Assembly (NCBI GenBank): GCA_002411005.1
Contig: DHQC01000003.1
Location: forward strand, 4,086 to 68,085
Source of the DNA: Bacillales bacterium UBA5348
GTDB taxonomy: Bacteria > Bacillota_I > Bacilli_A > RF39 > UBA660
Direction: 5' to 3'
DNA: 64,000 bases
The position numbers were made by a program, and so were the translations under genes. Positions 1 through 60,447 of this stretch are shown piece after piece. How positions within the stretch are numbered: the first letter of the stretch is position 1; each line of letters begins with the position of its first letter. The notes under the pieces were generated by a model. It saw nothing but the letters and a program-made list of their open reading frames with translations, was not told where the DNA came from and did not search any database.

Positions 1-1225
1 CAATACCTCTACTTATAGCTTCTTCCCTATTTGGAATAATTTCATAATTATCTTTTATATTATTATGAAGCATATCTTTAATTATTTCATCAGGATTTTC
101 AAATCTAGGATTATCATTAGTAATTATTACTTTATCGCACATTGCAAGTGCATAAAATGTCATTTTAGGCCTCTTCGTTTTATCACGATTGCCTCCACAA
201 CCAATTATACTATATATTCGACCATTTGAGAATTCTTTTACTGCGTTTAATATGTTAAAAACAGCATCTGGTGTATGTGCATAATCAACAATTATTTTGT
301 TATCATTATAAAAAACAGTATCCATACGTCCTGCTGGTGCTTTTAGTATCGGGATTTTGTTTATTATTTCAGAAAATGATATTCCTTCTTCATGTAACAC
401 TATTATCATCGTCAACAGATTGTAAATATTATGTCTACCTAATAAAGGACTTTTAACAGTATGTTTATTATTATTATATCTGAAAGAAAAGGTCGTATTA
501 TCGTTCTCAACAATAGATTTTAATATCTGATAGTCACTCTTGTTAAAACCATAAGTGAGATAATTATTAACTTTCATATCTTTAGCATAATCATCATCTT
601 CATTAATAATACTTTTACCTATACTTTTTAATAAGTGAAACAATTTTTGTTTTGTATGTGCATAATCTTCCATCGTTTTATGAAAATCAAGATGTTCCTC
701 TGTTAAGTTAGAATAGATGGCATAGTCAAATGTCAAACCATCAATCCGGTTAAAAGCTAGAGCATGACTACTGACTTCCAAAGCCACATATTTAATTCCA
801 TTTTCCTTACATTCATCTAACATTTGATATAAAGATAAAATATCTGGGGTTGTATTTTCTAACACTCTAATATCATCTTTCATATAAAAACCAATTGTAC
901 CAATATAAGCACAAGGGATATTTAGTTTATTTAACATTTGATAGATAAGAAAACAACTCGTTGTTTTACCATTTGTTCCTGTAACGCCAATAAGTTTAAG
1001 ATCTTTAATACGTGGTAAATAATATTCTTTTACATAATCAACAAGATACTGTTTAGTATCATCTACAACTGTAGTTTTTACATCATAAGAACCATGTTCA
1101 ACAATAACCTTAATAGCTCCCCTTTCAATAGCTTCATTTACATAATTATGACCGTCATATTTAGCACCTTTTATAGCGATAAAAATATCACCTTGTATAA
1201 TTTCTTTAGAATTAGTTCTAATCAC
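1..1225 (-). CDS. murE: UDP-N-acetylmuramoyl-tripeptide ligase MurE (5' part; gene continues past the window start)
   Basis: Hand translation of the minus strand from GTG at 1225-1223 gives VIRTNSKEIIQGDIFIAIKGAKYDGHNYV...LIGVTGTNGKTTSCF...GRHNIYN...DYAHTPDA, the Mur-ligase Rossmann and ATP-binding motifs. A GAGGT SD sits inside the 3' end of the upstream PBP gene. The ORF stays open to position 1, which is why it is absent from the ORF track. Confidence 0.8.
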   Translation of the reverse strand, partial: MIRTNSKEIIQGDIFIAIKGAKYDGHNYVNEAIERGAIKVIVEHGSYDVKTTVVDDTKQYLVDYVKEYYLPRIKDLKLIGVTGTNGKTTSCFLIYQMLNKLNIPCAYIGTIGFYMKDDIRVLENTTPDILSLYQMLDECKENGIKYVALEVSSHALAFNRIDGLTFDYAIYSNLTEEHLDFHKTMEDYAHTKQKLFHLLKSIGKSIINEDDDYAKDMKVNNYLTYGFNKSDYQILKSIVENDNTTFSFRYNNNKHTVKSPLLGRHNIYNLLTMIIVLHEEGISFSEIINKIPILKAPAGRMDTVFYNDNKIIVDYAHTPDAVFNILNAVKEFSNGRIYSIIGCGGNRDKTKRPKMTFYALAMCDKVIITNDNPRFENPDEIIKDMLHNNIKDNYEIIPNREEAISRGI

Positions 1226-3140
1226 CTAGATATAACCTCACTTTCTCTCCCTCTATTATCTTAGTACCCCCTGAAGGAGACTGTTCTAATATTTTCTTAC
1301 CACTTCCACTATATTCAATTTGGAAATTTTTAAGTTGTTTAATAGCCTCTACTTTTTCAAGCCCTACCACATCAGGTACCATATAATACTTTTTATCGTA
1401 CCAGTTATATCTCATTTCACTTCCATTTTCTCTCCTTTTAATATCTAAGGCATTAATAGCATCATTCATAATTGATTTAACTATAGGACCTGCAACTGTT
1501 CCACCATATTGAGTTACTCCTTTTGGATAATCAACCGCAACATAAACTAAAACTTCAGGATCATCAGCTGGTAAAAAACCAATAAATGAAACGATATAAT
1601 TTCCTACCATATATCTACCATTATTTACTTTTTGAGCAGTTCCTGTTTTACCACCAACCCTATAACCTTCTATATAGGCTGTACGGCCTGTTCCATTACT
1701 AACAACACTCTCCAAAGCATATCTAACTTTCATACTTGTAGTTTCATCTATTACCTGCCTAACCATCTTCTTATTATTTTCTTGAACAACAGTATTTGTC
1801 TCAGGCTCAAGCAATCTTTTTACAATATAAGGTTGATATAAATAACCGCCATTTATTGCTGCTGCTACGGCTGTTACTTGTTGAATAGGAGTAACTGAAA
1901 CACCTTGACCAAAAGAAGTTGTCGCTAATTCAACAGGGCCAACTTTATCTAAGGAAAAGAGTATTCCGCTACCTTCACCATTTAAATCAATTCCAGTTTT
2001 TTTACCAAAACCAAAATTATGAATATATTTATATAATCTTTCTTTACCAAGTCGTCTACCTAACTCTACAAAACCTGGGTTACAAGAATTTTCAACAACT
2101 TGTAAAAATGTCTGAGCACCATGGCCGCCTGCCTTCCAACATCTAATCCTAGCATTTTCAACTCTAACATAGCCAGGATCATAGAAAGTATCTTTATCTA
2201 AATCTACCGTTCCCTCTTGGAGGGATGACGAAATTGTGATTATCTTGAAAGTAGAACCCGGTTCATACGTAGACCAAATTGGTAAATTACGGTTAATTTC
2301 TTCAATCGTGTAATCTTGATAGTTAGAAGGCGAGAAATTTGGACGAGATGACATTGCCAGTATTTCCCCATTATTTGGATCCATTACAATAGCTAGGGCA
2401 CTATCAGGATTATACTTAGCTTCAATATTGTCTAACTCTCTTTCTACCGAGGCTTGAATATTATGATCGATCGTCAACATCATATTAATACCACTTTGTG
2501 GTTCTTCATATATCTCTGCCATTTTAAGACGTTGTCCTTTTGCATCAGAATAATATTTAATTGAACCATTCTCCCCTTTTAAATATTTATCATATTGTAA
2601 TTCTAAACCACTTAACCCCTGATTATCAATACCAACAAAGCCAACAACATGGGATAAATAATCATCATAAACATAATTTCTTTTAGCTTCCTTCAATAAA
2701 TAAACGCCATCAAAATTTAAACTATTAATTTTATCAGAAATCTCATAGTTTAATCTTCTACCCTCAGGATGGACTCTTTCGATCGAAGTTTTTTTAGCAA
2801 CGTGTTTATACATTTCATCATAAGAGACATTTAATATTTCACTTAAAGCCGTACTAACAGCCGCCTTGTCCTTAATTTGATTAGGAACAAAAACTAAACT
2901 AGTTGTCGTAACATTATCAGCTAAAACAACCCCATTACGATCATAGATAAGCCCTCTATCAGCTTCAATAGGAAGATTACGATTCCATAAATCATTCGCT
3001 AATTTATTTAAATCCTTGTATTCTATTAATTGAATAAAAAAAACTCTTATAATAATTAACGCTAACAGAATAATACAACCTATAATAATAATTTTAATAC
3101 GAGCATGAATAGTTTTATAAAACATGAATGTCCACCTCAA
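1218..3140 (-). CDS. Class B penicillin-binding protein (transpeptidase) with a single C-terminal PASTA domain; SpoVD/FtsI-like
   Basis: 640 aa. N-terminal TM anchor, dimerisation domain, then transpeptidase motifs STFK (SxxK), SCN (SxN) and KTGTA (KTG). One PASTA repeat at the C-terminus. It sits immediately upstream of murE, as spoVD does in the Bacillus dcw cluster. Confidence 0.85.
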   Translation of the reverse strand: MRWTFMFYKTIHARIKIIIIGCIILLALIIIRVFFIQLIEYKDLNKLANDLWNRNLPIEADRGLIYDRNGVVLADNVTTTSLVFVPNQIKDKAAVSTALSEILNVSYDEMYKHVAKKTSIERVHPEGRRLNYEISDKINSLNFDGVYLLKEAKRNYVYDDYLSHVVGFVGIDNQGLSGLELQYDKYLKGENGSIKYYSDAKGQRLKMAEIYEEPQSGINMMLTIDHNIQASVERELDNIEAKYNPDSALAIVMDPNNGEILAMSSRPNFSPSNYQDYTIEEINRNLPIWSTYEPGSTFKIITISSSLQEGTVDLDKDTFYDPGYVRVENARIRCWKAGGHGAQTFLQVVENSCNPGFVELGRRLGKERLYKYIHNFGFGKKTGIDLNGEGSGILFSLDKVGPVELATTSFGQGVSVTPIQQVTAVAAAINGGYLYQPYIVKRLLEPETNTVVQENNKKMVRQVIDETTSMKVRYALESVVSNGTGRTAYIEGYRVGGKTGTAQKVNNGRYMVGNYIVSFIGFLPADDPEVLVYVAVDYPKGVTQYGGTVAGPIVKSIMNDAINALDIKRRENGSEMRYNWYDKKYYMVPDVVGLEKVEAIKQLKNFQIEYSGSGKKILEQSPSGGTKIIEGEKVRLYLGD

Positions 3141-3172
3141 TAATTTATATGAAGAAATAAATAAAAATAGGA

Positions 3173-3924
3173 TTAAATATGCAATTTAATCCTATCAAAA
3201 TATTTAAATCTTTTAATGTTTTTTGGTATTTCTATCTTAATTTTTTCAGGTCTCTTAATTTTATTCTTTGAACCAACATTATCGATATATTTTAAAGAGA
3301 TATATTTTTTCGTTTTAAGACATACTCTTCTTAGAATTCTAGAAACAGTAGGTTGTGTAATTCCTAATTTAACAGCTAATTCCTTTTGCATCAATAGAGT
3401 ACTACCATTAAGACCATATGTTCCATTTATAACTTCTTTCTCTATCTCATCAAGTTGTTCTATTGCTTCTTCTAATTCATTACACGTTTCTTCATATTCA
3501 TTAGCATAATCAGCTAAAGGACCGTTATCAGGAATTACATCAAATAATTTGACTGTTCCACCCTCTGATGTTTTTAATATATCTTCATCCAAGCTAACAT
3601 CCATATTGGCTGATTTCTTATAAGATCTAAAACTCATTAATATTTCATTTTCAATACACCTTCCAGCATAACTTGAAAATTTATACCCTTTAGACACATC
3701 AAATGTCTTTATAGCTTTTACTAAACCTACACTACCTGATCCAATGATATCTTCTGTTTCCACAAATTCATGTTTGAAACGAGCCAAAATAAAAACAACA
3801 AACCTTGAATCAACTGCTTAAATGCTTCTTAACTACCACTATTATATAGTCTAAAATATTCTAATGTCTCTTTTTCACTTAAATGACCGAAAAAATTATA
3901 TTTCCTCTCTTTTTCACGATTCAT
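3173..3924 (-). pseudogene. Sporulation-type sigma factor (SigE/SigK family) disrupted by an in-frame stop and a frameshift
   Basis: The body ORF 3173..3787 (TTG start) encodes sigma regions 2.2-4.2 (GLVKAIKTFD...YAGRCIENEILM...ITQPTVSRILRR) but lacks region 2.1. A separate frame upstream (ATG 3924-3922) reads MNREKERKYNFFGHLSEKETLEYFRLYNSGS* with a TAA at 3831-3829 where SigE/SigK carry Gln/Glu. The text then continues as EAFKQLIQ in that frame and as RFVVFILARFK (region 2.1) in the body frame, offset by 1 nt near 3803-3806. Confidence 0.55.
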
Positions 3925-3991
3925 GTAACCCCCACTTTCCAAAATTTAAAATGTAGTGATTATTATACATAATTAATGAATAATATGCAAG

Positions 3992-4018
3992 AAAAAAAGA
4001 GATAGTCTATATCTCTAT
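3992..4018 (-). terminator. 27-bp repeat copy 1: rho-independent terminator immediately after tagD
   Basis: The plus-strand sequence is aaaaaaagagatagtctatatctctat. On the minus sense this gives the hairpin agagata-uagac-uaucucu followed by U7. Confidence 0.7.
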
Positions 4019-4437
4019 TAATTTTTCACTGCCAATTCTTCTTTTATCTGAGTAGAAGATACACCCTCAGTTCTAGGTAAATAAACAACATCAGCATATT
4101 CTTTTAAATATTCAAATCTTTCACTACCTGCCCAATCTCCACCCATAACAACTATATCAATATCATATTTTTGTATATCATAAACCTTTTGTTCCCATGT
4201 TTCCTCAGGTATAACCAGATCTACATATTTTATTGCTTCAACCAATAACTTTCTTTCTTCATAATTAAAATAAGCTTTCTTCCCTTTTTTATCATTAAAT
4301 TCATCTGTAGAAACAGCGACAACTAAATAATCCCCTAAAGCCTTTGCTCTTCTTAATAAATTAATATGCCCATAATGTAATAAATCAAATGTTCCATAAG
4401 TTAATACTTTTTTCATGATTATCTCCTTATTATTCAT
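4018..4437 (-). CDS. tagD: Glycerol-3-phosphate cytidylyltransferase
   Basis: 139 aa with the HYGHINLL (HxGH) nucleotidyltransferase motif. Size and sequence are typical of TagD/TarD. It overlaps tagH by 8 nt. Confidence 0.9.
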   Translation of the reverse strand: MNNKEIIMKKVLTYGTFDLLHYGHINLLRRAKALGDYLVVAVSTDEFNDKKGKKAYFNYEERKLLVEAIKYVDLVIPEETWEQKVYDIQKYDIDIVVMGGDWAGSERFEYLKEYADVVYLPRTEGVSSTQIKEELAVKN

Positions 4438-5164
4438 TCATGAATTTTTCATATGCAGCTAAAATCTTATCTGGATCACCCTGCATTTTTATTTTACCAT
4501 CATGTAACCATATTACTTCATCACATAATTCGTTTAATGTTTTAGGAGTATGAGAAACAATAATAACCGTTCTGTTTTCAGTAAAGATAAGTTCTTTCAT
4601 TTTACCATAACTTTTCTTTTTAAATTGAACATCTCCAACACTTAAAACCTCATCTATAAGCATTATATCAGTTTCTAGTATAGCAGTAATAGCAAATGCT
4701 AATTTAGAATACATTCCTGAAGAATATGTTTTAACTGGTTTATATATAAAATCTCCAATATCAGCAAAATCAATTATTTCTTGTTCTTTTTCTCTAACCT
4801 GCTCTTCATTAAAACCTAATAAAAGTCCAGATAAATATATATTTTCATAGCCTGTTAATTTTTTATTAAAGCCTACTCCAATTGATAATAATGATACTGT
4901 ATTATTATGTAAATCTATACTCCCTATATCAGGCGAAAAGATTCCACCAATAGCTCTTAATAATGTTGATTTACCACTACCGTTTTTACCAATAATTCCT
5001 ATTATTTTACCTTCATCAATTGTAAAGGATACACCCCTTAAGGCTTCAAAAGTTTCTATTTTCTTTCTATTTTTTTTATTAAAAAAGGTAGATCTAATAG
5101 AAGTCTTTTTAAGACCCTTATATGTAATATGTAAATTCTCAATTGTAATCGCTTCTTTTTTCAT
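4430..5164 (-). CDS. tagH: Teichoic-acid export ABC transporter, ATP-binding protein
   Basis: Walker A GKNGSGKST, ABC signature YSSGMYSKL, Walker B MLIDEVLSVGD. It is adjacent to an ABC-2 permease. Confidence 0.85.
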   Translation of the reverse strand: MKKEAITIENLHITYKGLKKTSIRSTFFNKKNRKKIETFEALRGVSFTIDEGKIIGIIGKNGSGKSTLLRAIGGIFSPDIGSIDLHNNTVSLLSIGVGFNKKLTGYENIYLSGLLLGFNEEQVREKEQEIIDFADIGDFIYKPVKTYSSGMYSKLAFAITAILETDIMLIDEVLSVGDVQFKKKSYGKMKELIFTENRTVIIVSHTPKTLNELCDEVIWLHDGKIKMQGDPDKILAAYEKFMNE

Positions 5165-5955
5165 TAAATCACCTTCGCATAACTATTTTCATTCTTATGA
5201 ATCAACTTAATACCTATATAAGTAAAAATCAATCCAACCACTAACCAAAAGGTTAGACCTGAAAAATTTGGAATTTTATCATAGATTATAACATTCCTAA
5301 ATTCATTCATCAAAAATGCTATTGGATTAACACTTAACATTAAAAAGCCAAGTTTCCCCTTTAATCTAACATTAATATTATAAAACACTCCTGAAAGATA
5401 AAACAAGAATCTAAGTACAATATCACTTAGGTTAGCTAAATCTTGTACATAAACACTAAAATGCATTAATATACAAGATATTCCAAAAGTAATAATATAA
5501 AGTATTATTAAGATAGGAAAGAAATATAACATTGTAAAAGAGAATGGAACATTCATAATTAACATAATTATAATTAATAATACAAACGAAATAAATAATT
5601 TAAATAAATATGTAAAAGATTTAGATATTAACAAAATATATTTAGGTATATATACTTTAGATATTAATTCTCTATTATTTACAACTAATTTAATACTACC
5701 AGTTATCATTCTGTTAAAGAATTGCCATACAGTAATACCTATTAATACAAAAGGAATAAAATATTCTTCATTAGCCTTAAAAACATATCCAAAAACAAAG
5801 ACATAGATCAACATAAAAGATAATGGTTCAATAATCCACCATAACCAATTTAAATATGAATCTGTGACTTCACTTTTAAGCTCTGCTTTAGCAGAACGAA
5901 TAGCATACCTTGAATATTTTTTTGTATTGTTATATAAACGTACTACGTCTTTCAT
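5164..5955 (-). CDS. tagG: Teichoic-acid export ABC-2 type permease
   Basis: 263 aa polytopic membrane protein with 6 predicted TM segments. It is translationally coupled to tagH (ATGA overlap). Confidence 0.8.
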   Translation of the reverse strand: MKDVVRLYNNTKKYSRYAIRSAKAELKSEVTDSYLNWLWWIIEPLSFMLIYVFVFGYVFKANEEYFIPFVLIGITVWQFFNRMITGSIKLVVNNRELISKVYIPKYILLISKSFTYLFKLFISFVLLIIIMLIMNVPFSFTMLYFFPILIILYIITFGISCILMHFSVYVQDLANLSDIVLRFLFYLSGVFYNINVRLKGKLGFLMLSVNPIAFLMNEFRNVIIYDKIPNFSGLTFWLVVGLIFTYIGIKLIHKNENSYAKVI

Positions 5956-5973
5956 ATTTTATATTTCCTCCAT

Positions 5974-8583
5974 TTATTTTTTATATGTTGCATCAATGAT
6001 TCGTTTACAATTGTTTTTATCTGTATATTTAAAGGTATTATTAACTCTTTTAATATATTTTTCTTCCATCTTAAAACCATTATCGAAATAAAATTTTATT
6101 TTAGCAACAACATCTTTATAGTCAGTTAAAACATCCCCAAAAGCATCATTTTCATAGAGAAAATATCCTTTGCTGTAATATTCTTCAAAGAAAGTATCAT
6201 TATCAAATTGAAAGAAAATTTCCGGTTTTTTTAAATATGCAAAATCGAAAAAAACGCTTGAATAATCAGTTATTAATAATTTAGACTCGGAAAAAACTTG
6301 AGAATACGAAACATCATTTTGAGATATTATCCTGATATTTTCATCGGAGAATTCATCAAAAAAACTTTTGTAGCCGTCCATACCTGGATGCAAAATAAAA
6401 TTCATCGTATACTTATATTTTTTTAACATTCTCTTCAAGTTTTTATCTGTCAATAGTTTTTTATAATTAATATAATATTCACTTTTGTCGAAATCGGGCA
6501 AAGTTTCATGTGCACCATTTTCCAATATTTTTCCAGACAATTTTTTTCTCCAGGTAGGACATAAAGAGATAATGTTTTCACTATGATTCTCTAAAGAATC
6601 AAACCTTGCTAAACCAGTTAATAATATATCACTTGAATCAAAAAAGTATTTTTTTTGGTTTATTTCGTTATATTCACCTACTGTCGAAACAATAAACTTA
6701 TCTGCTTTTATATTTAATTTATTTGACGGTATTGATAAATCATCTTTTATTATTCCGTGTTGCAGCCAAATTAGTTTGTATGAAAATAAGTCCTGATAAT
6801 ATTTGATTTTATCTAATTGAAAAGCATTATAAAATAATCTGTGCATATGTGATGTATATAAAAATTTAGTGTTTAAAAATAAAAATTTATGTTTTATACT
6901 TCCGCGTTTTACGACTTTACCAATTTTTCGTAACCTTTTATAATCGGTGCTATTTTTATTTATTACGAAATAGGTATTCTTAGCAATATCTAATCTGTTA
7001 GAATATATATATTTAAAAAGAGCTTCGCCATTATCTCCTGCTTTATCAGGCCTATCGTTAATTAGAATAAACTCTTTTGTTCTTTTAGATAACAATCTTA
7101 AAAAAGTTTTATACTTGTATTTTCTAATTATATTAAAAAAACTATTAAAGTTATAAGTATTTGTCCTCATGTCTGTTTTCGATAATTTAAATTTTCTACC
7201 ATTAAATGATAAATAATATTTTTTGTGTCTTAAAAGAATTTTATCATCTTTTAAACTAAGTTTAGTGTTAGCATCTACAATTATTCTTCTAATCGGATAA
7301 TTTTTATTTTCTTTTGTATTAATTAACATAAACTTTATAATTTTTGATTTATTTATATCAAATTCAAATTTTCTATAATGAGTGTTATCAATTAAAAATT
7401 CACCATAATTTGTATCATAAGGACTATTAAAGTCTTCTCTTTTTGTGTAAGTATATACTTTGTTATTACCATCATAAGCGGCAATATCAATATAATTACA
7501 TAAATAGTTGTTAAAAAGGATTTCAAATGTTATAGTCTTTTCTTTAAAATAATAATTTTTAATTTTAATATCACGGTTATTTAAAACTACTATATTGTTC
7601 TCTAACAACTTTTGATAATTACTGTTTTTTAAATTGATAAATACCAATTTTTGTTCAATATTAGGCAGCCATTTAGATTTATTATAGATGTAATCATCTG
7701 ATAATAAGTTTATATATTCTTTATATTTTCTTATAATCATATCATAATTAGCTTTATTTTCAAAAAGCTCCAGTTGGATATCTCTTAACCTACTTCTTAA
7801 CTCGTATATAATTATTTCTTTCTGATAATTTTCTAAGTTTTGTTTATTAAAAACCTCAAATAGATTTAAAACAGAACAATAGCCTTTTTCAAGCAATTTT
7901 AAATTATCAACTATTGAAGTTTGCTCTTTTCTTTTTCTATAATGATATTTAACATTGTTTTCACAAACATAACCAATATTTTTATTATTCAAATATAACT
8001 CACTATTAAATTTACCATCCTCAGAAGAAACCATCGTGACATCAAATTTTTTGTCTTTTATAATATTTGATTTATAAAAAGAAGAGGCACTTGAAAGTAC
8101 AAAATTATGAGGTTCCGTAGTCAAACTTATAATCCTATTTCTTCCCCCCATAAATTTATATTTTCCATGTATACCTATTTGAGCTTCAAAATAATATAAG
8201 GGGATAGAAACCATGTCAACATATAAAAAGTTTCTTTCAAAAAAATTAAAAACCTCTGTAAGTGTATTTGTTGATAATTTGTCATCCGGATCTAAAAAAT
8301 TAGTGTATTTTCCTTTAATTTTATTCAAACCTGCATTTCTTGCTCCACTTTGGCCTTTATTCTTTTGATATATATATATAATATTATCCGGGTATTGGTG
8401 TTTATATTTTAAGCAAATCTCTTCACTATTATCGGGGCTTCCATCATTTACTAATATTAATTGAACGTTTTCTTCAAATCCTATGTTCTGATTAATAACA
8501 CTTTCTATTGCTTCTTCTAAATACTTTTCGACATTATAAATCGCCATTACTATAGAAAATTTATACTCATATTTCTTTTCCAT
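5974..8583 (-). CDS. Bifunctional GT2 glycosyltransferase / CDP-glycerol glycerophosphotransferase (TagF-family)
   Basis: The N-terminus is GT-A (FSIVMAIYNVEKYL...LILVNDGSPDNS). The C-terminus carries TagF/TagB motifs (CPTWRKK, ILHPG, ITDYSSVFFDFAYLKKPEIFFQFD). Confidence 0.75.
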   Translation of the reverse strand: MEKKYEYKFSIVMAIYNVEKYLEEAIESVINQNIGFEENVQLILVNDGSPDNSEEICLKYKHQYPDNIIYIYQKNKGQSGARNAGLNKIKGKYTNFLDPDDKLSTNTLTEVFNFFERNFLYVDMVSIPLYYFEAQIGIHGKYKFMGGRNRIISLTTEPHNFVLSSASSFYKSNIIKDKKFDVTMVSSEDGKFNSELYLNNKNIGYVCENNVKYHYRKRKEQTSIVDNLKLLEKGYCSVLNLFEVFNKQNLENYQKEIIIYELRSRLRDIQLELFENKANYDMIIRKYKEYINLLSDDYIYNKSKWLPNIEQKLVFINLKNSNYQKLLENNIVVLNNRDIKIKNYYFKEKTITFEILFNNYLCNYIDIAAYDGNNKVYTYTKREDFNSPYDTNYGEFLIDNTHYRKFEFDINKSKIIKFMLINTKENKNYPIRRIIVDANTKLSLKDDKILLRHKKYYLSFNGRKFKLSKTDMRTNTYNFNSFFNIIRKYKYKTFLRLLSKRTKEFILINDRPDKAGDNGEALFKYIYSNRLDIAKNTYFVINKNSTDYKRLRKIGKVVKRGSIKHKFLFLNTKFLYTSHMHRLFYNAFQLDKIKYYQDLFSYKLIWLQHGIIKDDLSIPSNKLNIKADKFIVSTVGEYNEINQKKYFFDSSDILLTGLARFDSLENHSENIISLCPTWRKKLSGKILENGAHETLPDFDKSEYYINYKKLLTDKNLKRMLKKYKYTMNFILHPGMDGYKSFFDEFSDENIRIISQNDVSYSQVFSESKLLITDYSSVFFDFAYLKKPEIFFQFDNDTFFEEYYSKGYFLYENDAFGDVLTDYKDVVAKIKFYFDNGFKMEEKYIKRVNNTFKYTDKNNCKRIIDATYKK

Positions 8584-8592
8584 GATTTCCTC

Positions 8593-11460
8593 CTAAATTA
8601 TTTTTTCTTTTCTTAATTTAGATATAATTCTATCTGAATTACTGTTATCATCAAATTCCACTATTTTTTTGTACCTGTTTTTATACTTTGTTTCTTGATT
8701 GCTATGATAATCTTTTTGAATTGCATTAACTAATTCTTTCTTATTATAACACACACTACCGAATGCTAAATTTTTGGTAAGCATTAGTTTTGTTCCTTCA
8801 CCATACATCTTTAGACAATCATCTTTATCTCTCCAAAAAAATATGACATTGCTGCCTCGATAAAACGCATCATATGAAATTGAAGAGTAATCTGTAATCA
8901 ACAATTTACAATTTTGTAATATCTTATCATACTCAACTTTTTCAGGTAAATATTTTTTTAGTTCACAATCAGAATTTTTCATATAATTTACAATCAGGGG
9001 ATGAGGTAAAATAATGGTTTTTTGCAATAAATCCTCAGGTATTGATTTAATAATATCCTCAATCATTCTATAATAATTGGTTTTTGAAAAATCGATGCGT
9101 GCTTGATTTAATTCCCACCTTCTCCAGGTTGGCATTATAACAATTTTATCTGCATTAGTTTTTTTATAACTTTTATCAAATTTTGCTAATCCTGTGATGT
9201 ATAAATCTTTTTTATTAAAGCCACCTAATTCAATAAAGTGTTCTGCTTCTAATTTTGAAGAAACTACAATTTTATATAATTTATATTGATTTTTTCTAAA
9301 ACTAGATCTCATATCACTATCCAAAGAAATCATATACATTACGCCATGCTGTAAAAATATAAATGATATGTCTTTCTGGTTTATTTTTCTTACAGCATAT
9401 TTATTAGCAATTCTTAATTGTATAGCATGGGCTATCGTTTCAGTTCCAATAAATTTTTTACAACTAAAAAAGTATATTAAATGACGTAAAGAATTTTTGT
9501 AAATTATATTTTTCTTGTATTTTTCGTCTATATTATTTAGTACATCATTATTCTTATCAATTATATAATAGCATGAATAATATCCTTTATCTATTAGTTT
9601 TTCGTATAACACAGAAGCACTTTCTTCATATCTATTCGACTCTTTTTCATATAATAAAATAATGTTTCTTTTAAACCAAAATTTAGATAATACATAGCTA
9701 AAAAATATTTTTAACTGTCCTTTAAATGTATCATAAACGTTTTTTTCTCTTATAGTTAAATACATTGTATTTTTTATTGTTTGTCTAAAATAAATAGCAC
9801 TATCATTATGAATAATAATTTTGCTATTACGATTTTTTCCATTTTTAAAATCAAAAATATTAAAAAGAATTCTACCAAAATTATCTTTATATTGTAATTT
9901 TATCTTGTTCTGAATATCAAAATTAAGAATAGCCTCTATAGGAAGACTAAATTTATAAAAGTTAAAATAATATCCTTTTATAAATGGAATTCCTTTTTCA
10001 TATTTTAGTTTAATTGGAAATGTAACATCGTTAATTACTATCTTTAAATTTTTTGCATTAATATTGCTTGAAGTACTTCCTAATATTTTAAAAAGTCCGA
10101 AAGCAGAAAAATTTATTTTGCCGTTTCTAAAAGAGCTTTTTTTTGTTATATTAAGCAATAAAGGTTTTTCTTTTTTTTCTTTTACTTCATCTATTATCCT
10201 TTCAATTACTCTCTTACTACTTTTACCATCATCTAAATAATTAAATCTGTTGTTAAATTCTACATATTTCGCATTATATTTATCAAAATATTTATCAATA
10301 TTTCTTATTTCTTTAATTAGTCCAGTTTCATTTTTAATAATAGGTCCTGGTAATTCTTTTAAATCAAAATAAAAATCTCTTAATTTGTTTTGGTATGTAT
10401 CTAAATCATACATATAAAATAAAATTGGTCTATTTAGGTTAGCATAATCAAAGAATACGCTTGAATAATCAGTTATTAATAAATCACTTATGATATATAG
10501 ATCATTAATATCATCATAATTACTGACATCATAAACAAAATCTTTATATTTTTCTAAATCTAATGAATTAGAGACAAAATAATGGGTTCTTAGTAATATA
10601 ATATAATCTTTACTAAGTTTTTCTTTTAATAAATTTAGATTTATTCCTAATTCATATGTATAACCTACTCCAGATACGTGTTGATCGTCTCTCCATGTTG
10701 GAGCATACAAAATAACTTTCTTATCTTTGGGTATTTCTAATTCTTTTTTTACCTTAGTTAAATCCTTTTCTCTATATTTAAATAAGAAATCATTTCTTGG
10801 ATAACCTTCTTCAATAATAATATTTTCTTTATTTAATTTTTTAAGATTGAAGGCTGAAATGAATTTCTCAGTACAAAATTTAGAAGGAGATAACATATAA
10901 TCATATCTTAAAGCGTCATCATCATACTTAGCTCTTATCTCTCTATTACTATTAAGTGCGTTACCACCAGTTACTTTAATATCATAACCAAGTCTTTTTA
11001 GAGGAGTTCCATGCCATGTTTGAATATAAACTTGTCCTTTTTTCTTTTTGATTTGTTCTGGTATTCTTGAATTACTTATCCAATACTTTGAAATCGAATA
11101 GTATTTGTAATAATCCTTAGAACCATATTTTACTAAAATAGTATTTTCATTAGTAAATAAATGTGCTTTCTCATCGGGGTTTTTAAAGGCCCAAATAAAT
11201 TTAAAATCATTATATTTTTTATTGTTAACCATGTATTCATATAAAGCTCTTGGACTATCAGCATAACTTCTACCCATATAAGCTTCAAAGATAATCATTT
11301 TATTATTAATTTGGCCTTTATCACTTACAATGCTGTATTTTATTGACCTATATAATCTTAATGATTTTCGTAATACTTTTCTAAACTGAACATTCTTTTT
11401 AGATAGATTTAACAAATGTCTTTTTAATTTTTTCCTTACTTTCATCATTAACCTCCCCAA
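8593..11460 (-). CDS. Tandem double-domain CDP-glycerol glycerophosphotransferase (TagF-like poly(GroP) polymerase)
   Basis: 955 aa containing two TagF-like modules: QTWHGTPLKRLGYD...APTWRDD...ITDYSSVFFDYANLNRPILFYMYD and LQHGVMYMISL...MPTWRRWE...ITDYSSISYDAFYRGSNVIFFW. The 5' end overlaps the next gene by ~60 nt, so the true start is probably internal (MMKVRKK or MIIFEAYMGR). Confidence 0.75.
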   Translation of the reverse strand: MGRLMMKVRKKLKRHLLNLSKKNVQFRKVLRKSLRLYRSIKYSIVSDKGQINNKMIIFEAYMGRSYADSPRALYEYMVNNKKYNDFKFIWAFKNPDEKAHLFTNENTILVKYGSKDYYKYYSISKYWISNSRIPEQIKKKKGQVYIQTWHGTPLKRLGYDIKVTGGNALNSNREIRAKYDDDALRYDYMLSPSKFCTEKFISAFNLKKLNKENIIIEEGYPRNDFLFKYREKDLTKVKKELEIPKDKKVILYAPTWRDDQHVSGVGYTYELGINLNLLKEKLSKDYIILLRTHYFVSNSLDLEKYKDFVYDVSNYDDINDLYIISDLLITDYSSVFFDYANLNRPILFYMYDLDTYQNKLRDFYFDLKELPGPIIKNETGLIKEIRNIDKYFDKYNAKYVEFNNRFNYLDDGKSSKRVIERIIDEVKEKKEKPLLLNITKKSSFRNGKINFSAFGLFKILGSTSSNINAKNLKIVINDVTFPIKLKYEKGIPFIKGYYFNFYKFSLPIEAILNFDIQNKIKLQYKDNFGRILFNIFDFKNGKNRNSKIIIHNDSAIYFRQTIKNTMYLTIREKNVYDTFKGQLKIFFSYVLSKFWFKRNIILLYEKESNRYEESASVLYEKLIDKGYYSCYYIIDKNNDVLNNIDEKYKKNIIYKNSLRHLIYFFSCKKFIGTETIAHAIQLRIANKYAVRKINQKDISFIFLQHGVMYMISLDSDMRSSFRKNQYKLYKIVVSSKLEAEHFIELGGFNKKDLYITGLAKFDKSYKKTNADKIVIMPTWRRWELNQARIDFSKTNYYRMIEDIIKSIPEDLLQKTIILPHPLIVNYMKNSDCELKKYLPEKVEYDKILQNCKLLITDYSSISYDAFYRGSNVIFFWRDKDDCLKMYGEGTKLMLTKNLAFGSVCYNKKELVNAIQKDYHSNQETKYKNRYKKIVEFDDNSNSDRIISKLRKEKII

Positions 11461-12565
11461 GATTTCCTTTAAGAATATAATCCGCTAATAAAGTGGTAAT
11501 ATTTCCAGATACATTAGCGACATATTTACTCTTAAAATTTCTTATTAAGTTAAAATCATATTGTTTCTTATTTAAACTGTACATTAATTCATAAGCTGAC
11601 TTAAATACACATCCCGGCATTTCTTTATATAAATCAATGTTTAGTCCGTTCTTTTCTATATATTCTGAATAATCATAAACATAAAAATATACTGGTTTTT
11701 CAAGGATAGCAGCTTCAATAGAAATAGCCGAATAATCAGTTATTACATAATCAGCTATCGTAAGTAACTCTAAGGCTGTAAATTCCTTGCATCTATATAC
11801 TCGATCATTCGAAAACTTTATTTTTTTACTTGGATGACTTTTGATAATTAAGTTATATTTACTTAAATTAATTGAATTAATCAATCCCTTTACATGATTA
11901 CTTTCATTAGTTCTAAAAGTTGGTACATACAAAATCACTTTTTTACTATTAAGTTTTGGATAAGCTTTATGAATTTTATTTTTAATTAATTTTTGATTAT
12001 TAACTAAATAATCAATTCTTGGTAACCCTAGCGAAATTAATTTATCAAAATCAGCATTAAAAGCCTCACTAAAATAAGGAACCATAGCAACTGATCCAGA
12101 TATTATTACATCATAATTTTTATGCATATCCATCATTTTAGATACTTTAATATTTCTGCCAGATTCTTTTCCTAAAGTTTGATATCCAAACTTCTTTATA
12201 GCTCCTAAAGCATGCCAAATTTGAACTACTTTCAAATCACGCTTATGGTTCAATATACTTATTGGAATTATATAGGAATCAATAATGCATGTTTTAGAAG
12301 TCGCTATATGGTACATTTGTTTTAACATAAAAAAATAGAATTTTACTCCTCCTATAAAATCTTTATCTAGCTTTCTAGATAACATTTTTATTTTTAAATT
12401 CTTATTCTGTAATAACAATTCCTTCGAGAGTAATTTAAAATCCAACGAAGCAAAATCAGACTGACGGCTTAGGAAAGTGATTTTATTATTATTGGTCGGA
12501 AATAACTTTAAAAAAAAGTAAATAAAACGCAAATGATATTTAAATAAATATAGAAGCATTGCCAT
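11399..12565 (-). CDS. CDP-glycerol glycerophosphotransferase, TagB/TagF family (primase-like, short form)
   Basis: 388 aa with QIWHALGAIKKFG, VPTFRTNE and ITDYSAISIEAAILEKPVYFYVYD motifs. Confidence 0.75.
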   Translation of the reverse strand: MAMLLYLFKYHLRFIYFFLKLFPTNNNKITFLSRQSDFASLDFKLLSKELLLQNKNLKIKMLSRKLDKDFIGGVKFYFFMLKQMYHIATSKTCIIDSYIIPISILNHKRDLKVVQIWHALGAIKKFGYQTLGKESGRNIKVSKMMDMHKNYDVIISGSVAMVPYFSEAFNADFDKLISLGLPRIDYLVNNQKLIKNKIHKAYPKLNSKKVILYVPTFRTNESNHVKGLINSINLSKYNLIIKSHPSKKIKFSNDRVYRCKEFTALELLTIADYVITDYSAISIEAAILEKPVYFYVYDYSEYIEKNGLNIDLYKEMPGCVFKSAYELMYSLNKKQYDFNLIRNFKSKYVANVSGNITTLLADYILKGNLGEVNDESKEKIKKTFVKSI

Positions 12566-12752
12566 ATTTTAATATTAAAGATATTTCATTTACTTCTTCC
12601 CTGCTATAAAAAGTTATAATTCCTACTAAATTATTCACTAAATATCACTCCTATGTAAATTATATCACATATATAACATAAATAATGACCATTAGTAACA
12701 TTTTTCGCTAATTTAAGGGTTCTTTTAACAACAAAATTATAAATTTTACGAT

Positions 12753-12779
12753 AAAAAAAGAGATAGTCTATATCTCTAT
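12753..12779 (-). terminator. 27-bp repeat copy 2: identical terminator overlapping the stop of the YiiX-like gene
   Basis: A perfect copy of the 27-mer at 3992-4018 with the same hairpin and U-run. It overlaps the TAG stop at 12770-12768. Confidence 0.7.
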
Positions 12780-13316
12780 CTCTTGTTGTTCAATATAATT
12801 ATAATTTCTTAAATAACCTATATATATATTTGTTAATCCCTCTAAAAGTTCAAAATCCTCTGGATGAGTTATCTTTGGTAAAGCACTGACATCAATATCT
12901 GATTTATCTAGAATATATTTTACAAAACCTGAACAATAAAATTTGTTAGTAGCATTGCTATGTCGGTTAATTCCAGCTAAAACAAGACCCGTTCTATTAA
13001 ATTTATATTTGTTTTTATTATCTATCATGTAATTAATATTTTCTTTTAAATCTTGATATTGTTGATCAGTAACATTTAAAACATAAATTTTTGATTTAGT
13101 ATCTTTAAAACGTTTAAATGTTCCAATATTTATTCCTTCATGGACAAAGCCTCCTGAAAAGGCATTATATGGATTTAATCTACCAAAGGAATATAATTCC
13201 TTTAAATCTTTATCTAGGGAAATAGATACATGATTATATTCTTTCCCTGAATAATATTTAATAACAGTAGATAATATTGTTCCTGTTTGAGTTAATACGA
13301 TATATATCTTTTTAAT
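12768..13316 (-). CDS. YiiX/DUF830-like permuted papain-fold (NlpC/P60-related) peptidase; probable non-canonical ATT start
   Basis: An open frame runs from directly after the PBP stop (TAA 13346-13344) to 12768: ...SIKKIYIVLTQTGTILSTVIKYYSGKEYNHVSISLD...NKFYCSGFVKYILD. The His-then-Cys order is typical of permuted papain-like amidases. No ATG/GTG/TTG lies upstream of the His-containing half (first ATG at 13028). An ATT at 13316-13314 sits 3 nt after GGTGGT. Confidence 0.5.
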   Translation of the reverse strand: MKKIYIVLTQTGTILSTVIKYYSGKEYNHVSISLDKDLKELYSFGRLNPYNAFSGGFVHEGINIGTFKRFKDTKSKIYVLNVTDQQYQDLKENINYMIDNKNKYKFNRTGLVLAGINRHSNATNKFYCSGFVKYILDKSDIDVSALPKITHPEDFELLEGLTNIYIGYLRNYNYIEQQEIEI

Positions 13317-13343
13317 ACTACCACCATCTCTAATACTTTTTAT

Positions 13344-15488
13344 TTATAATTCTACTTTAGAACTTGTACGTTTAAGTTTTAAGTTTAACTCCTCTATCTT
13401 TGTAATACTAGTTCCTTCTGATATATCTTGGCTATAAACATAACCATATCCTTCTATATTACACTTTATATTAATTAAGCTACAATAAGTATTTACTTCT
13501 CTACTAGACCACATCGTCATTTTAGGTAAGATTATGTCTTTGCTATTAGTTAAAACAAAGATAGTATCACCATCATTTATAATCTCATTAGCTTTAGGAT
13601 ATTGATTTATAATCTTATCGCCATCACCAATCACTATATTTTGGTGATCGATGGAGTCCATTACTATTGTGTTATTATTGATGAAATTAGGTACAACATA
13701 GCTTGAATCACTTGTTTCCACTATTTCTACATCTTGTTTAATATTATAATATTTTGCTACATCAACAACCAATTTTTTTACAGCTGACGCAACTGCTGTT
13801 GAAGCTCCATAATCAGGTCTTTTTGCTAAGGCATATATTATTATTTCTGGATCATCTTTAGGAAACATACCCGCAAATGATCTTATATAATCTTCTTTTC
13901 CTGTTTGATATCTACCGGTATTAGGATCTACATATTGAGCAGTACCTGTTTTTGCAATAAGATCATAACCTTCAACTTTATAATTATAACCTGTTGCAGC
14001 ATTTGGATCACCATGTACTACTTGATACATCAATTCTTTTATAGCTTCAACTGTTTCCTTTGAAGCGACTGTTTCAATCTCTTCACGTCCTCCAGTATAC
14101 ACTATCTGATTAGTGTTAGGATTAACAATTTTTTCCACAATATAAGGTTTAAGCATAACACCATCATTAGCGATAGCGGTCAGAGCTTGAACAAATTGGA
14201 TTGGTGTTACGGTAATACCTTGACCAAAACCTGCATTTGCAACTTCAACATCATATTTGAAATTGATTATTCCTGCTTGTTCATTAGGTAATGTGAAACC
14301 GGTTTTTTTACCAAACCCTAATTTCATAAAATAATCTTTTAAATCTTTTCTATTTATAAACTCTTGAACCATATTAGCAATACCAACATTAGATGAGAGA
14401 GCAAAACCTTGATCATAAGTAATATTACCCCAGCCTTCTGGTTTCCAATCAGAAATTGTATCATCACCAATTTCTATTTTACCAGACTTAAAAGTATTAT
14501 TACCTTTATAGGTTCCTTTCTCCATCGCTGCCATATAAGTAAAGGCTTTCATTGTTGAACCTGGTTCAAAAGTATATGATACCAAAGGATTTAAATAGTT
14601 TTCAATGTTTTTTATATTAGGATTAAATGAAGGTGTAGAAGTAGTTCCTAAAACAGCACCTGTTTTAGCATCTACAACAGTCATAAGCATCCAATCAGGA
14701 CCATATTTTTCAGTTGATTCCTTAACAACTCTTTCTGTAAACAATTGAACATTATCATCAATCGTTAAGTAAATATCATTACCATCTTCTTCTTCATCAC
14801 GAACCTCTGGAGTATTAGGAATTTTATAACCGTTTAAATCTTTCTGATATTCTAAATAACCATCTTTTCCACTCAATTCTTTATTATAATATTTTTCAAT
14901 TCCCATTTGACCTTTTATTTTTAAATCATCATTCATTTGGACATAGCCTAACGTATATGCTAAAAAATCATTGTTAGGATAATATCTTTTAAACGTTTGA
15001 ATAAAATCAATTCCTGGTAATTCAAGTTTTTGTATTTCTTCTTTCTTAAGCTCTGTAATACCCACCCCTCCAGGTCTTAACTCTACTTGATAAAGATTTT
15101 CTTTGTTTAATAATCTTAAAATTTCCTTTTTATCCATATTAATAATTGATTCTAAAGCTTCAGCTGTTTTCTCCTTATCAACGACATGTCTAGGAGTACT
15201 AAAGCCCTCACTTCTTTTAGGTGAAAGATAAGCTATAACGGTGTATGAATCAACGTTTTGAGCTAAAATACCACCATTATATGAATATATTGTTCCTCTA
15301 TTAGCATATAAAATATCTTTCTTGGTATTACGATTATTTGCAAATTGTTTTAGATTAATACCATCAATAGTTGTGGATAATGATAATCTTGCCATTTGGA
15401 TGGATATAACCAAAAAGAAAAGAAAAGGTACGATAAGCATTAATTTGTTTACATTAATTCTATTTGTCGTATCTTTTCCTTTTTTCAT
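13344..15488 (-). CDS. Class B penicillin-binding protein with two PASTA domains (PBP2B/FtsI-type, division)
   Basis: 714 aa. TM anchor, transpeptidase SxxK (STMK), SxN (SSN) and KTG (KTGTA) motifs, then two C-terminal PASTA repeats. It follows ftsL as in the dcw cluster. Confidence 0.85.
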   Translation of the reverse strand: MKKGKDTTNRINVNKLMLIVPFLFFLVISIQMARLSLSTTIDGINLKQFANNRNTKKDILYANRGTIYSYNGGILAQNVDSYTVIAYLSPKRSEGFSTPRHVVDKEKTAEALESIINMDKKEILRLLNKENLYQVELRPGGVGITELKKEEIQKLELPGIDFIQTFKRYYPNNDFLAYTLGYVQMNDDLKIKGQMGIEKYYNKELSGKDGYLEYQKDLNGYKIPNTPEVRDEEEDGNDIYLTIDDNVQLFTERVVKESTEKYGPDWMLMTVVDAKTGAVLGTTSTPSFNPNIKNIENYLNPLVSYTFEPGSTMKAFTYMAAMEKGTYKGNNTFKSGKIEIGDDTISDWKPEGWGNITYDQGFALSSNVGIANMVQEFINRKDLKDYFMKLGFGKKTGFTLPNEQAGIINFKYDVEVANAGFGQGITVTPIQFVQALTAIANDGVMLKPYIVEKIVNPNTNQIVYTGGREEIETVASKETVEAIKELMYQVVHGDPNAATGYNYKVEGYDLIAKTGTAQYVDPNTGRYQTGKEDYIRSFAGMFPKDDPEIIIYALAKRPDYGASTAVASAVKKLVVDVAKYYNIKQDVEIVETSDSSYVVPNFINNNTIVMDSIDHQNIVIGDGDKIINQYPKANEIINDGDTIFVLTNSKDIILPKMTMWSSREVNTYCSLINIKCNIEGYGYVYSQDISEGTSITKIEELNLKLKRTSSKVEL

Positions 15489-19594: not shown

Positions 19595-19625
19595 AACAAA
19601 AAAGCAAACTAACCGTTTGCTTTTT
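19595..19625. terminator. Bidirectional rho-independent terminator downstream of polC
   Basis: The gcaaac-taac-cgtttgc hairpin is flanked by an A-run and a T-run. Confidence 0.6.
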
Positions 19626-28356: not shown

Positions 28357-29598
28357 TCACCTCTTTATAATATAGCGTACGCCCTTTAAAACTTTCTTAG
28401 CAATTGGCATTACAACACCAAACAATTTATAAATACCCTTATTTATAGGTAAATCATATTCACCTACAAACTCTAAAATAACAGGATTAAACTTTGATTT
28501 AAATACAAACAATTTATCATCAAGGGCTCCCCCTACTCCCCCTAGATTACAATAATGAATCTTATTATCTAAACACTTCTTAAAAATATCAAACAATAAA
28601 CCAACGTTAGTATTTAAATGAGGCAAAATCTCAACATTATTACCAGCATAAAGATATTCCATCATTCTTATACCTTCATTATTAGAAGGACTTATTATTA
28701 AAGCAACTGATGTTATAACATCATTTCCATATTCTTTTTTTATACCTTTAGCTTGGTCTAATTGACGCTTTGTATCCTCAACATTATTTTTACCAACTTC
28801 TAGTTCACTCTCTAAAAAAGAAATATATTTAACTAAATCAACATGAGCAAAACACAACTGAGCATTATCCTTATAAGCTTCAATTATTCTTTTGAAATAA
28901 TCTTCACTTCTTAGAGTAATATGTTGTCTTTTCTCTGTCATATTAATAATATCATAAAACGCCTCAATATTCTTGACATCAGATGAATATGTAAAGTAAA
29001 CTCCCCTCTTTTGATGATAATTACCAATATAATTTCTGGTTGTTCTACTTATTTTACTTCTTAGTGTATTTTCATCAAGAAAGTTATTATCTTTATCAAT
29101 CATTGGAACAGCTAGATTAAAACGGGGTTGTAAATATGCTGCCAGATTTTTCTTAAAGCCTTTATGTATATAACCATTATTTAGTAAGACCTTGTGTTTT
29201 TTATCATAATCTTCACTAAAATTAAGAGGTATTTCTATATTTTCCTTAATACTACGTTCTGTAACACAAAATAATGGATCTATTTTTAGACAATAAGCAT
29301 GTCTTTCTTTAGCATAATCTTTTAAATAACCAGTGAATGTTTTTACTAATGAAGAATCAGTATAATCAATTGTATAACCTCTAGGAATATAAATAAGATT
29401 AACATTTAAAGCTAAATTTCTAATTAAAAGAAGAGCTGTCGCTACTAAGACTTCGTCTTTATATAAACCAACTAAGACATTATCCCAGTTGTTTTTTACC
29501 TGTACCCAGCCTCTCTCTTGCATAATACTAATCATGCTGTGTTTAGCAATAAAATCATCATATTCTTTTTGATCAAGATTAACTTTAAACTTATACAT
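28357..29598 (-). CDS. FemAB-family peptidoglycan interpeptide-bridge aminoacyltransferase (paralogue 1)
   Basis: 413 aa, FemABX/Lif family. It has the acyltransferase fold with an inserted coiled-coil helical arm. One of three tandem paralogues. Confidence 0.8.
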   Translation of the reverse strand: MYKFKVNLDQKEYDDFIAKHSMISIMQERGWVQVKNNWDNVLVGLYKDEVLVATALLLIRNLALNVNLIYIPRGYTIDYTDSSLVKTFTGYLKDYAKERHAYCLKIDPLFCVTERSIKENIEIPLNFSEDYDKKHKVLLNNGYIHKGFKKNLAAYLQPRFNLAVPMIDKDNNFLDENTLRSKISRTTRNYIGNYHQKRGVYFTYSSDVKNIEAFYDIINMTEKRQHITLRSEDYFKRIIEAYKDNAQLCFAHVDLVKYISFLESELEVGKNNVEDTKRQLDQAKGIKKEYGNDVITSVALIISPSNNEGIRMMEYLYAGNNVEILPHLNTNVGLLFDIFKKCLDNKIHYCNLGGVGGALDDKLFVFKSKFNPVILEFVGEYDLPINKGIYKLFGVVMPIAKKVLKGVRYIIKR

Positions 29599-29608
29599 AT
29601 TATACCTC

Positions 29609-38032: not shown

Positions 38033-38062
38033 AAAACAAACCAAATTGGTTTGTTTTTGTTT
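38033..38062 (-). terminator. Rho-independent terminator after pgi (also functional on the + strand)
   Basis: The acaaacc-aaat-tggtttgt hairpin is flanked by A- and T-runs. Confidence 0.6.
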
Positions 38063-50377: not shown

Positions 50378-50498
50378 TTCATCAAAATACGTTTTATTTT
50401 CAACTAACTTTTGTTGTAGAATTATTTCGCTAGAATTTTCTCTATTAAGTGAGTTAATATGATCACCTCCAATTAAAACAATTGTTTTACTTAAACGA

Positions 50499-60359: not shown

Positions 60360-60447
60360 AATCCCTCCTTTACTAGTGATTTATCACTATTCATATATAT
60401 CTTATGGTTTTATCTAATTTAGGTTAATATAAATCAAAAAAATCCTT

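Follow-up and report, generated by a model that had tools for sequence, protein, structure and literature searches.

How did an operon for a wall-teichoic-acid-type polymer come to lie inside the division and cell wall (dcw) gene cluster of Bacillales bacterium UBA5348, with the same 27 bp at either end? The stretch of contig DHQC01000003.1 analysed here (64,000 nucleotides, hereafter the 64-kb window) carries six tag genes between a mraZ-mraW-ftsL-penicillin-binding protein (PBP) unit and spoVD. The 27-mer AAAAAAAGAGATAGTCTATATCTCTAT, which we call R, matches the plus strand of the window at 3992-4018 and 12753-12779 only, even when up to three mismatches are allowed, and 100 shuffles of the window sequence gave 0 matches. 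Identity between the two copies ends exactly at the limits of the 27-mer, and the surrounding sequences are unrelated. A comparison with contigs of close relatives reveals that the tag operon is an exact 8,761-bp presence/absence polymorphism among co-existing strains, the left flank of which is ~99.9% identical between alleles.

A terminator-like repeat and its empty site

On the minus strand, which carries all genes of the locus, R reads ATAGAGATA-TAGAC-TATCTCT followed by T's, forming a 7-bp stem, a 5-nt loop and a run of seven T's. Copy A (12753..12779, minus strand) is a predicted intrinsic terminator (hairpin and T7) closing the mraZ-mraW-ftsL-PBP-C92-like unit, and the identical copy B (3992..4018, minus strand) is the predicted terminator of the tag operon. 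Copy A begins with 12 nt (12768-12779) that encode the final I-E-I-stop of the upstream C92-like open reading frame (ORF); copy B begins with the last base (4018) of the tagD TAA stop codon, and its T-run stops 1 nt short of the -35 box of a sigma-factor gene promoter. A custom scan of the window coding strand found 11 hairpins followed by T-runs, all at gene or operon ends; among these only the R pair has a common stem, the others all being different. R shares with the other nine sites the layout of an intrinsic terminator, namely a stem-loop and U-tract after the last gene of a unit; its stem, with two G-C pairs, falls short of the G+C-rich stem that also characterizes such terminators. A consensus terminator scan of the window missed R because it demands at least three G-C pairs. 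The centroid energy of the stem is -6 kcal/mol, and -9.2 kcal/mol in the context of copy A.

The 86-aa frame beside copy A (orf86, the tail of the C92-like frame) was found on 15 contigs, of which seven are occupied, four are empty and four stop at the fork between the two forms. The occupied structure of L001 (with five similar contigs) and L002 is the same as that of the window. The empty contigs L003 (GCA_028692855.1), L004 (JGI 3300028602), L005 and L008 have the order orf86, one repeat, sigma gene, spoVD and murE. A fifth empty contig of 12.8 kb, L021 (GCA_028680775.1), was found via the sigma protein; what appeared to be a paralogue of the sigma gene on another contig was rejected as such, being this same locus in its empty form. 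At the empty junction (…CAACAAGAG, then R with eight T's, then CTTGCATATT…) the left flank of copy A is joined through a single repeat to the right flank of copy B. The sequence missing from these five contigs is the unique body of the cassette (4019..12752, minus strand; 8,734 bp), which together with one R copy makes up the 8,761-bp segment. Identity of the flanks between the alleles is 99.85-99.93% on the left and 98.8-99.2% on the right. Contigs L006, L007 and L009 end exactly at the last base of R, where an assembly fork is expected. Both alleles co-exist in several samples: JGI 3300028602 holds the empty L004 and an occupied fragment, L010, that corresponds to window positions 3797-6272, and in GCA_028680775.1 contig L021 is empty, yet the protein accessions of the window contig come from the same series.

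The initial annotation had described two copies of the 27-mer in unrelated contexts, each with a minus-sense terminator hairpin and U7, that bracket exactly tagD-tagH-tagG and three TagF/TagB genes. The exact and three-mismatch searches with flank comparison, the 7-bp stem with T7 and the gene annotation, respectively, bear out this description. Its reading of the block as an inserted or exchanged cassette is now supported by the very thing that it had suggested seeking in related genomes, an empty site that keeps a single repeat, here one R at identical junctions (L003, L004, L005, L008 and L021).

The state of the cassette is part of a wider haplotype. In a small sample of 7-10 contigs, its presence is coupled, in every covering contig, to T7 (not T8), to 3959T (not 3959C) and to one version of a patch in the sigma pseudogene. 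The T-run has eight T's in all empty alleles and seven in both copies of all occupied alleles. The patch (3751..3817, minus strand) is a 67-bp substitution peak, ~30% diverged and with a 10-bp indel, that lies 175-240 bp from the boundary; its coupling to the cassette is seen in three occupied and three empty contigs. The empty version has a second in-frame TGA at the expected NLR motif, the occupied version a 10-bp deletion instead. Both versions still read as sigma region 2 and are therefore two old alleles rather than products of random decay; gene conversion with a divergent homologue is a possibility for the origin of the patch. A substitution peak at the boundary is a known signature of replacement flexible glycan islands exchanged by homologous recombination (PMC4033161). 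In the 3153-3208 block all four gametes are found, i.e., present with the reference variant (the window), present with the alternative (L002), absent with the alternative (L003) and absent with the reference (L004). Moreover, the left flank of the empty L004 equals that of the occupied L002 at every variable site within ~2.7 kb of R. Thus, the alleles recombine with their surroundings.

Origin of the two alleles

Relatives in which the locus could be compared have a PBP 68-71% identical to that of the window, the nearest being 71%. The PBP is followed by two secreted paralogues in L013, L014 and L023, by relA/spoT and an unknown gene (353 aa) in L015, and by unrelated genes in L012 and L024, where the spoVD half of the cluster is located elsewhere; an acyltransferase and other genes are also among the contents of the interval. 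None of L012-L015, L023 and L024 has tag genes in the space after the PBP. The PBP-spoVD interval is a clade-wide variable hotspot and not a normally contiguous junction. The initial annotation had proposed that the cassette splits two normally contiguous dcw halves. The cassette does lie between the PBP and spoVD sides, but the halves are not contiguous, and they stand apart in the empty allele too because the C92-like ORF and the sigma pseudogene lie between them. The proteins of the cassette have their closest homologues at 55-62% identity; in relatives these homologues are found beside yfhO and a tagO-like gene, beside cysS, after yebC and beside mur ligase genes. L019, a 5.5-kb contig that holds no flanks, is colinear with the cassette, with the same gene order and 70% DNA identity, and the next-best TagB homologues (L025, L026) are at other loci. 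With no tag genes in this interval of the relatives, which have their tag modules at other loci, the location of the tag unit in the dcw cluster would be derived in this lineage.

R itself appears to be confined to this locus. The 27-mer is absent from the GTDB species representatives (185,579 genomes), and the species therefore seems to be absent from that set; a PBP-based search for the locus in the same representatives returned only a 45%-identical Clostridium metagenome-assembled genome (MAG). In JGI metagenome contigs the 27-mer is found at this locus only, in both alleles, and there are no matches in IMG/VR viral contigs. Across the window and these three collections it is thus not a terminator common to many unrelated loci; commonness of that kind is what the initial annotation had said would count against its reading. 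The R stem with any loop of 2-9 nt occurs twice in the window, as the two R copies, and once in the relatives' loci (L012-L020 and L022; ~170 kb), directly after the PBP stop codon of L015 (aaAGAGATAattTATCTCTTTTTTT), as AGAGATA..TATCTCT followed by T7. With one mismatch per arm allowed, one more match appears in L013/L014, the terminator immediately ahead of the spoVD leader (AGAAATAT-AGGG-ATATATTTCT, then T's), where a G:C pair of R is replaced, in a compensatory change, by A:T. L015 has three R-family hairpins in direct orientation, in the order PBP, Ra, relA/spoT, Rb, 353-aa gene, Rc and spoVD, with Rb and Rc identical at 30 of 36 positions. The hairpins of this family, AGA[G/A]ATA…TAT[C/T]TCT with T's, are at 12157-12177, 13769-13804 and 14910-14945 of L015 and at 15042-15067 of L013. 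The hairpin just upstream of the spoVD leader is kept in L013 and L015 despite the different preceding gene. That the stem belongs to a dispersed repeat family was tested with a variable-loop pattern and a regular expression allowing one mismatch per arm, and was rejected; all matches lie in the PBP-spoVD interval of the window, L013/L014 and L015.

Because of its position, its coding overlap with the upstream ORF and the stem kept after the PBP in L015, we conclude that R appears to be the locus's own native terminator and the copy on the tagD side an in-situ duplicate. Accidental recurrence of the same 7-bp stem would have a probability of ~1e-3, which is our rough estimate and not a computed value. 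A terminator duplication had been one of the readings offered by the initial annotation, and it gains strength because R includes the end of the upstream ORF, three codons and the stop, and because the same stem follows the PBP of a related species.

On this evidence, the two alleles probably represent strain-level presence and absence of a self-contained wall-teichoic-acid-type operon, located 3' of the native terminator of the division operon and inside an interval that is itself variable. The tag unit would have entered the site in an ancestor of the species, with R duplicated in the same event, possibly when R crossed over with an R-like terminator of the incoming DNA over this short homology and an illegitimate join formed just past the T-run. 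Both alleles would now be passed as blocks between co-existing strains by homologous recombination in the flanking dcw genes, while recombination between the two R copies would offer a route to precise loss of the cassette. Selection acting on the cell surface, e.g., on phage receptors, probably maintains both forms. As R is present twice in the occupied allele, the division operon, the tag operon and the sigma/spoVD unit would each be insulated. As to which state came first, we lean towards the empty one as ancestral.

Several points weigh against this reconstruction. The terminator role of R is read from the sequence, and a stem with two G-C pairs is weak. No donor of the cassette was matched, the best outside homologues being 56-62% identical in protein and 70% in DNA; the route by which a 27-bp terminator would be duplicated is a proposal; and phage selection is drawn from the literature rather than from the data of this analysis. 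The available relatives, with no close outgroup and the nearest PBP at 71%, do not fix gain versus loss. The haplotypes sampled are not one simple step apart, be it an insertion or an R x R deletion, and the 174 bp between R and the sigma patch differ by one single-nucleotide polymorphism, which is odd for a block from a divergent donor.

The history could also have run in the opposite direction, with the occupied state being the older one and the empty allele arising by a single precise deletion, through R x R recombination or replication slippage, and then spreading by homologous recombination. We regard this as possible, though less likely. An R x R deletion predicts the observed empty junction exactly, and the native-like codon usage of the tag genes suggests long residence. 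The occupied allele is found in seven of the 15 contigs with orf86 (four being empty and four stopping at the fork), and the five empty alleles, all with T8 and, where covered, all with 3959C and the same sigma patch, fit a single origin. However, a deletion still needs an earlier duplication of R, i.e., one extra step; no relative has tag genes in the interval, the relatives' tag modules lying elsewhere; and the empty alleles, with T8 and a different sigma patch, are not simple derivatives of the sampled occupied strains.

It is improbable, in our view, that R is a site akin to the attachment (att) sites of integrative elements and that the tag operon is an integrase-less, non-autonomous cassette, similar to a cis-mobilizable element (CIME) or an integron cassette, moved by a recombinase in trans, with the R-family hairpins between the relatives' genes as traces of repeated cassette capture. 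The perfect 27-bp direct repeats do include the 3' end of an upstream ORF, as at many att sites, and the empty site has exactly one R, so that direct repeats go together with a single copy at the empty site as in site-specific elements. The three direct hairpins that separate PBP, relA/spoT, the 353-aa gene and spoVD in L015, two of them 30/36 identical, a large serine recombinase ~6 kb downstream in L013 and L014, and the precedent of CIMEs (PMC5704250) point the same way. Against this, no recombinase domain is found within the 64 kb, all six cassette ORFs being tag genes; R is restricted to this locus in the JGI contigs, though the JGI sample holds the organism, and is absent from the GTDB representatives and IMG/VR; and no contig with a circular junction was seen. 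The state of the cassette is also tied to the flanking haplotype and T-run length, with no switching on one background, and the repeat coincides exactly with what looks like a functional terminator. A broader form of this idea, in which the R-family hairpin is a cis-acting site that guides the capture of whole transcription units between the dcw PBP genes and is duplicated each time, likewise seems unlikely. Were it true, arrays of a unit followed by a hairpin would be expected, as in L015 with three hairpins and the window with two, and uncultured Bacilli would have an 'operon cassette' system based on a 27-nt terminator, driven by a recombinase in trans or by replication or repair, that would be a functional analogue of integron attC arrays or CIMEs.

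Mis-assembly of a mixed-strain bin, or terminators alike by chance or convergence, can be dismissed with near certainty even though the source MAG bin holds both alleles and AT-rich terminators are low in complexity, given the identical occupied structure in at least seven independent contigs and the empty one in at least four, from different samples and assemblers, the variants linked to the empty alleles (T8, 3959C and the sigma patch), assembly k-mers that, going by the contig ids (k119, k141), exceed the 27-bp repeat in length, the 0 matches in 100 shuffles and the different stems of all other window terminators.

The tag operon and its neighbourhood

In the direction of transcription, polC, a 723-aa ORF, mraZ, mraW, ftsL, the PBP2x/2B-like PBP, the C92-like frame and R copy A precede the cassette; R copy A is followed by a leader, the six tag genes, R copy B, a promoter, the sigma gene with its terminator and spoVD. 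The six ORFs are all intact, and with a predicted promoter and a predicted terminator the cassette would form a complete transcription unit. The 187-nt leader (12566..12752, minus strand) has a plausible extended -10 promoter, read by eye, with TG at 12667-12666 and TATAAT at 12664-12659; its only similarities to other sequences are short matches at chance level. The tagB-like gene has no obvious ribosome-binding site of its own, and its ATG (12565) lies within a 32-codon upstream ORF (12540-12638, minus strand) with a GTG start and a strong GGAG ribosome-binding site; this arrangement suggests translational coupling or a leader peptide.

The first gene encodes a TagB/TarB-like CDP-glycerol glycerophosphotransferase of 388 aa (11399..12565, minus strand, as are all those that follow), which is full length relative to its relatives and can be aligned with them from the first Met. 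It is followed by a double TagF/TarF-like glycerophosphotransferase of 955 aa with two Glyphos_transf domains (8593..11460), the TTG start of which gives a 62-nt overlap with the end of the tagB-like gene. In L019, the closest relative of the cassette, the double TagF is two separate adjacent genes (2-2673), and the window gene is therefore a gene fusion. The third protein, of 869 aa (5974..8583), is a fusion of a GT2 glycosyltransferase and a TagF-type glycerophosphotransferase, bifunctional as judged from its domains. PF04464 is found in these three proteins with E-values from 2e-33 to 7e-139; the TarB/TarF equivalog models score under their cutoffs, and we leave the exact roles general, at the level of the TagB/TagF family. 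Domain matches point to a TagG-like ABC-2 permease (5164..5955) and a TagH-like ABC ATPase (4430..5164), a candidate exporter pair; ABC2_membrane and ABC_tran are found, and the best NCBIfam models are those of TagH, at a sub-cutoff score (201 vs 320 bits). The last gene encodes TagD, a glycerol-3-phosphate cytidylyltransferase (4018..4437; TIGR01518 equivalog, 193 bits against a cutoff of 165.4). Among the annotated ORFs of the window, those of the cassette included, there are no linkage-unit enzymes TagO and TagA and no LCP ligase; these would therefore be encoded elsewhere, if the polymer is wall-linked.

The same set of ORFs has no integrase, transposase or relaxase domains. A composite of transposons or insertion sequences was rejected, there being no transposase, a duplication of 27 bp and ends (ATCGTAAAATTT... 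and ...GTGAAAAATTA) without terminal inverted repeats. A group IIC intron or other structured RNA was likewise rejected, as an Rfam scan of the window at gathering thresholds returned three tRNAs only. Integron attC sites are 55-141 nt long with R/L boxes, and the ORF of an integron cassette is promoterless with IntI nearby; an integron gene cassette was rejected here in view of the 27-nt repeat, the six-gene operon with a promoter-like leader and the missing integrase. Carriage by a plasmid or phage was rejected because searches returned nothing beyond short stretches of distant similarity to conserved parts of tagD or TagF. The G+C content of the cassette is 24.5% vs 28.8%, with the deficit in codon positions 1 and 2, while its G+C at third codon positions is 0.135-0.198 vs 0.15-0.23 and its pooled relative synonymous codon usage correlates with that of the rest of the window at r = 0.95. 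The composition and codon-usage analysis proposed in the initial annotation thus gave no sign of foreign origin, and such an origin was rejected on the basis of third positions and codon usage that match the rest of the window.

On the upstream side, the PBP2x/2B-like class B PBP (13344..15488, minus strand) is the last intact gene of the mraZ-mraW-ftsL-pbp unit. The Peptidase_C92/YiiX-like frame (12768..13343, minus strand), a weak match with an E-value of 0.005, follows the PBP stop codon directly and stays open over 191 codons, yet none of ATG, GTG or TTG occurs in it before 13028. A different frame has an ATG at ~13326, and one extra A in an A5 run (~13311) would join the two (MVVVLKKIYIVLTQTG…); the frame may be a pseudogene or a gene dependent on slippage. 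The strains compared show no variable site in this stretch (3.5 kb left of the repeat were covered). The ORF between polC and mraZ (17336-19507, minus strand) is also variable when the window is compared with L005, L012, L013, L015 and L024. It encodes 723 aa in the window, and the relatives have DUF6512 proteins, a pilin-like N_methyl/Ig-like protein or nothing; an apparent split of this ORF in L005 is a scaffold gap of N's. The polC-mraZ gap is a second variable slot at the edge of the dcw cluster.

Downstream of copy B is a SigK/SigE-like sigma-factor pseudogene with its promoter (3173..3990, minus strand), which has TTGCAT at 3990-3985, a 17-nt spacer and TATAAT at 3967-3962. Its ATG is at 3924, and an in-frame TAA follows codon 31 in all strains. 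The spoVD-murE-mraY-ftsW half of the dcw cluster begins with the gene for SpoVD (1218..3140, minus strand; TIGR02214 above cutoff). The spoVD leader (…TCATATA.A.TTA.TGAGGTGG…) is kept across species (window ~3141-3166, minus strand; L013 15068-15108; L015 14946-14985), and in L013 and L015 it forms an inverted repeat (GTCCAYTCAT…ATGAGGTGGAC) in which the ribosome-binding site would be masked. The leader may be a translational control element.

Farther away in the window, at 28357-32157 (minus strand), are three tandem FemAB-family paralogues, flanked by a MurJ/Polysacc_synt flippase-like gene and two M23 peptidases, of which one is PcsB-like and the other has LysM and G5 domains; together they form a putative dense cluster for cell-wall cross-bridges and remodelling. 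A 2,565-aa protein (39278-46975, minus strand) with GH94 catalytic, supersandwich and glucoamylase-like domains resembles a cyclic beta-1,2-glucan synthase or phosphorylase, which is unusual in a small low-GC Gram-positive genome. At 48287-52370 (minus strand) a UvrD-like helicase adjoins a Schlafen group 3-type helicase (PF09848, E-value 6e-108), a pair that may be defence-related. Perfect palindromic hairpins between A-runs and T-runs at 19602-19622, 38035-38055 and 60441-60457 score as terminators on both strands and are predicted bidirectional terminators.

Comparison with known systems

Wall teichoic acids are major phage receptors and surface determinants, and a polymorphism of this kind is therefore expected to shape phage-host dynamics within the population. 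The locus offers a base-pair-exact natural case of a whole cell-wall-polymer operon present or absent among co-existing, near-identical, uncultured Gram-positive strains. Since a resident terminator is exactly duplicated here and related hairpins separate unrelated genes at the same site in relatives, the data suggest a role for terminators as boundaries or landing pads in the insertion of operons, one that spares the neighbouring essential division genes. If such a mechanism is real and not a one-off, it bears on the safe addition of transcription units inside conserved clusters. A literature search on terminator-flanked teichoic-acid cassettes found nothing specific, and the comparisons below are with systems that share some of the features of the locus.

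In gene content, the cassette is similar to the tag/tar clusters of Bacillus subtilis and Staphylococcus in having TagD and glycerophosphotransferases of the TagB/TagF family, together with a candidate counterpart (TagG/TagH-like) of their TagGH exporter. Unlike these clusters, it is without TagO/TagA and an LCP ligase, has fused enzymes (the double TagF and the GT2-TagF protein), lies inside the dcw cluster between two PBP genes and is dispensable at the strain level. CIMEs (PMC5704250) are likewise integrase-less segments with direct repeats that include the 3' end of an upstream ORF. In contrast to these elements, no decayed transfer or integration genes, cognate integrative and conjugative element or integrase, or further site were found for the tag cassette, the content of which is a single biosynthetic operon.

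The minimal mobile elements of Neisseria (Saunders & Snyder 2002, cited in PMC1797815), according to the account of them there, are intervals between conserved genes that hold differing cassettes without a transposase or integrase, and their movement is credited to recombination in the flanking genes. In that account they are not defined by direct repeats, whereas at the present locus a terminator is duplicated. The likeness to them as described there lies in the layout of the locus. The two features that these elements have in common with flexible genomic islands, namely variable content between conserved genes and recombination in the flanks, are both found here.

Flexible genomic islands for cell-surface glycans, either replacement or additive, are exchanged by homologous recombination (Lopez-Perez, Martin-Cuadrado & Rodriguez-Valera 2014, PMC4033161). 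As in these islands, a surface-polymer cluster varies at the tag locus among co-occurring near-identical strains, with no mobility genes, recombined flanks and a substitution peak at the boundary. Unlike them, the locus shows presence or absence only, without alternative clusters, and it has base-exact boundaries formed by a duplicated 27-bp terminator, a feature not needed in that model and not accounted for by it. Thus, as a strain-variable surface-glycan island the tag cassette belongs to a well-known kind and is a clean, fairly ordinary case; what sets it apart are the exact terminator boundaries and the related hairpin arrays in its relatives.

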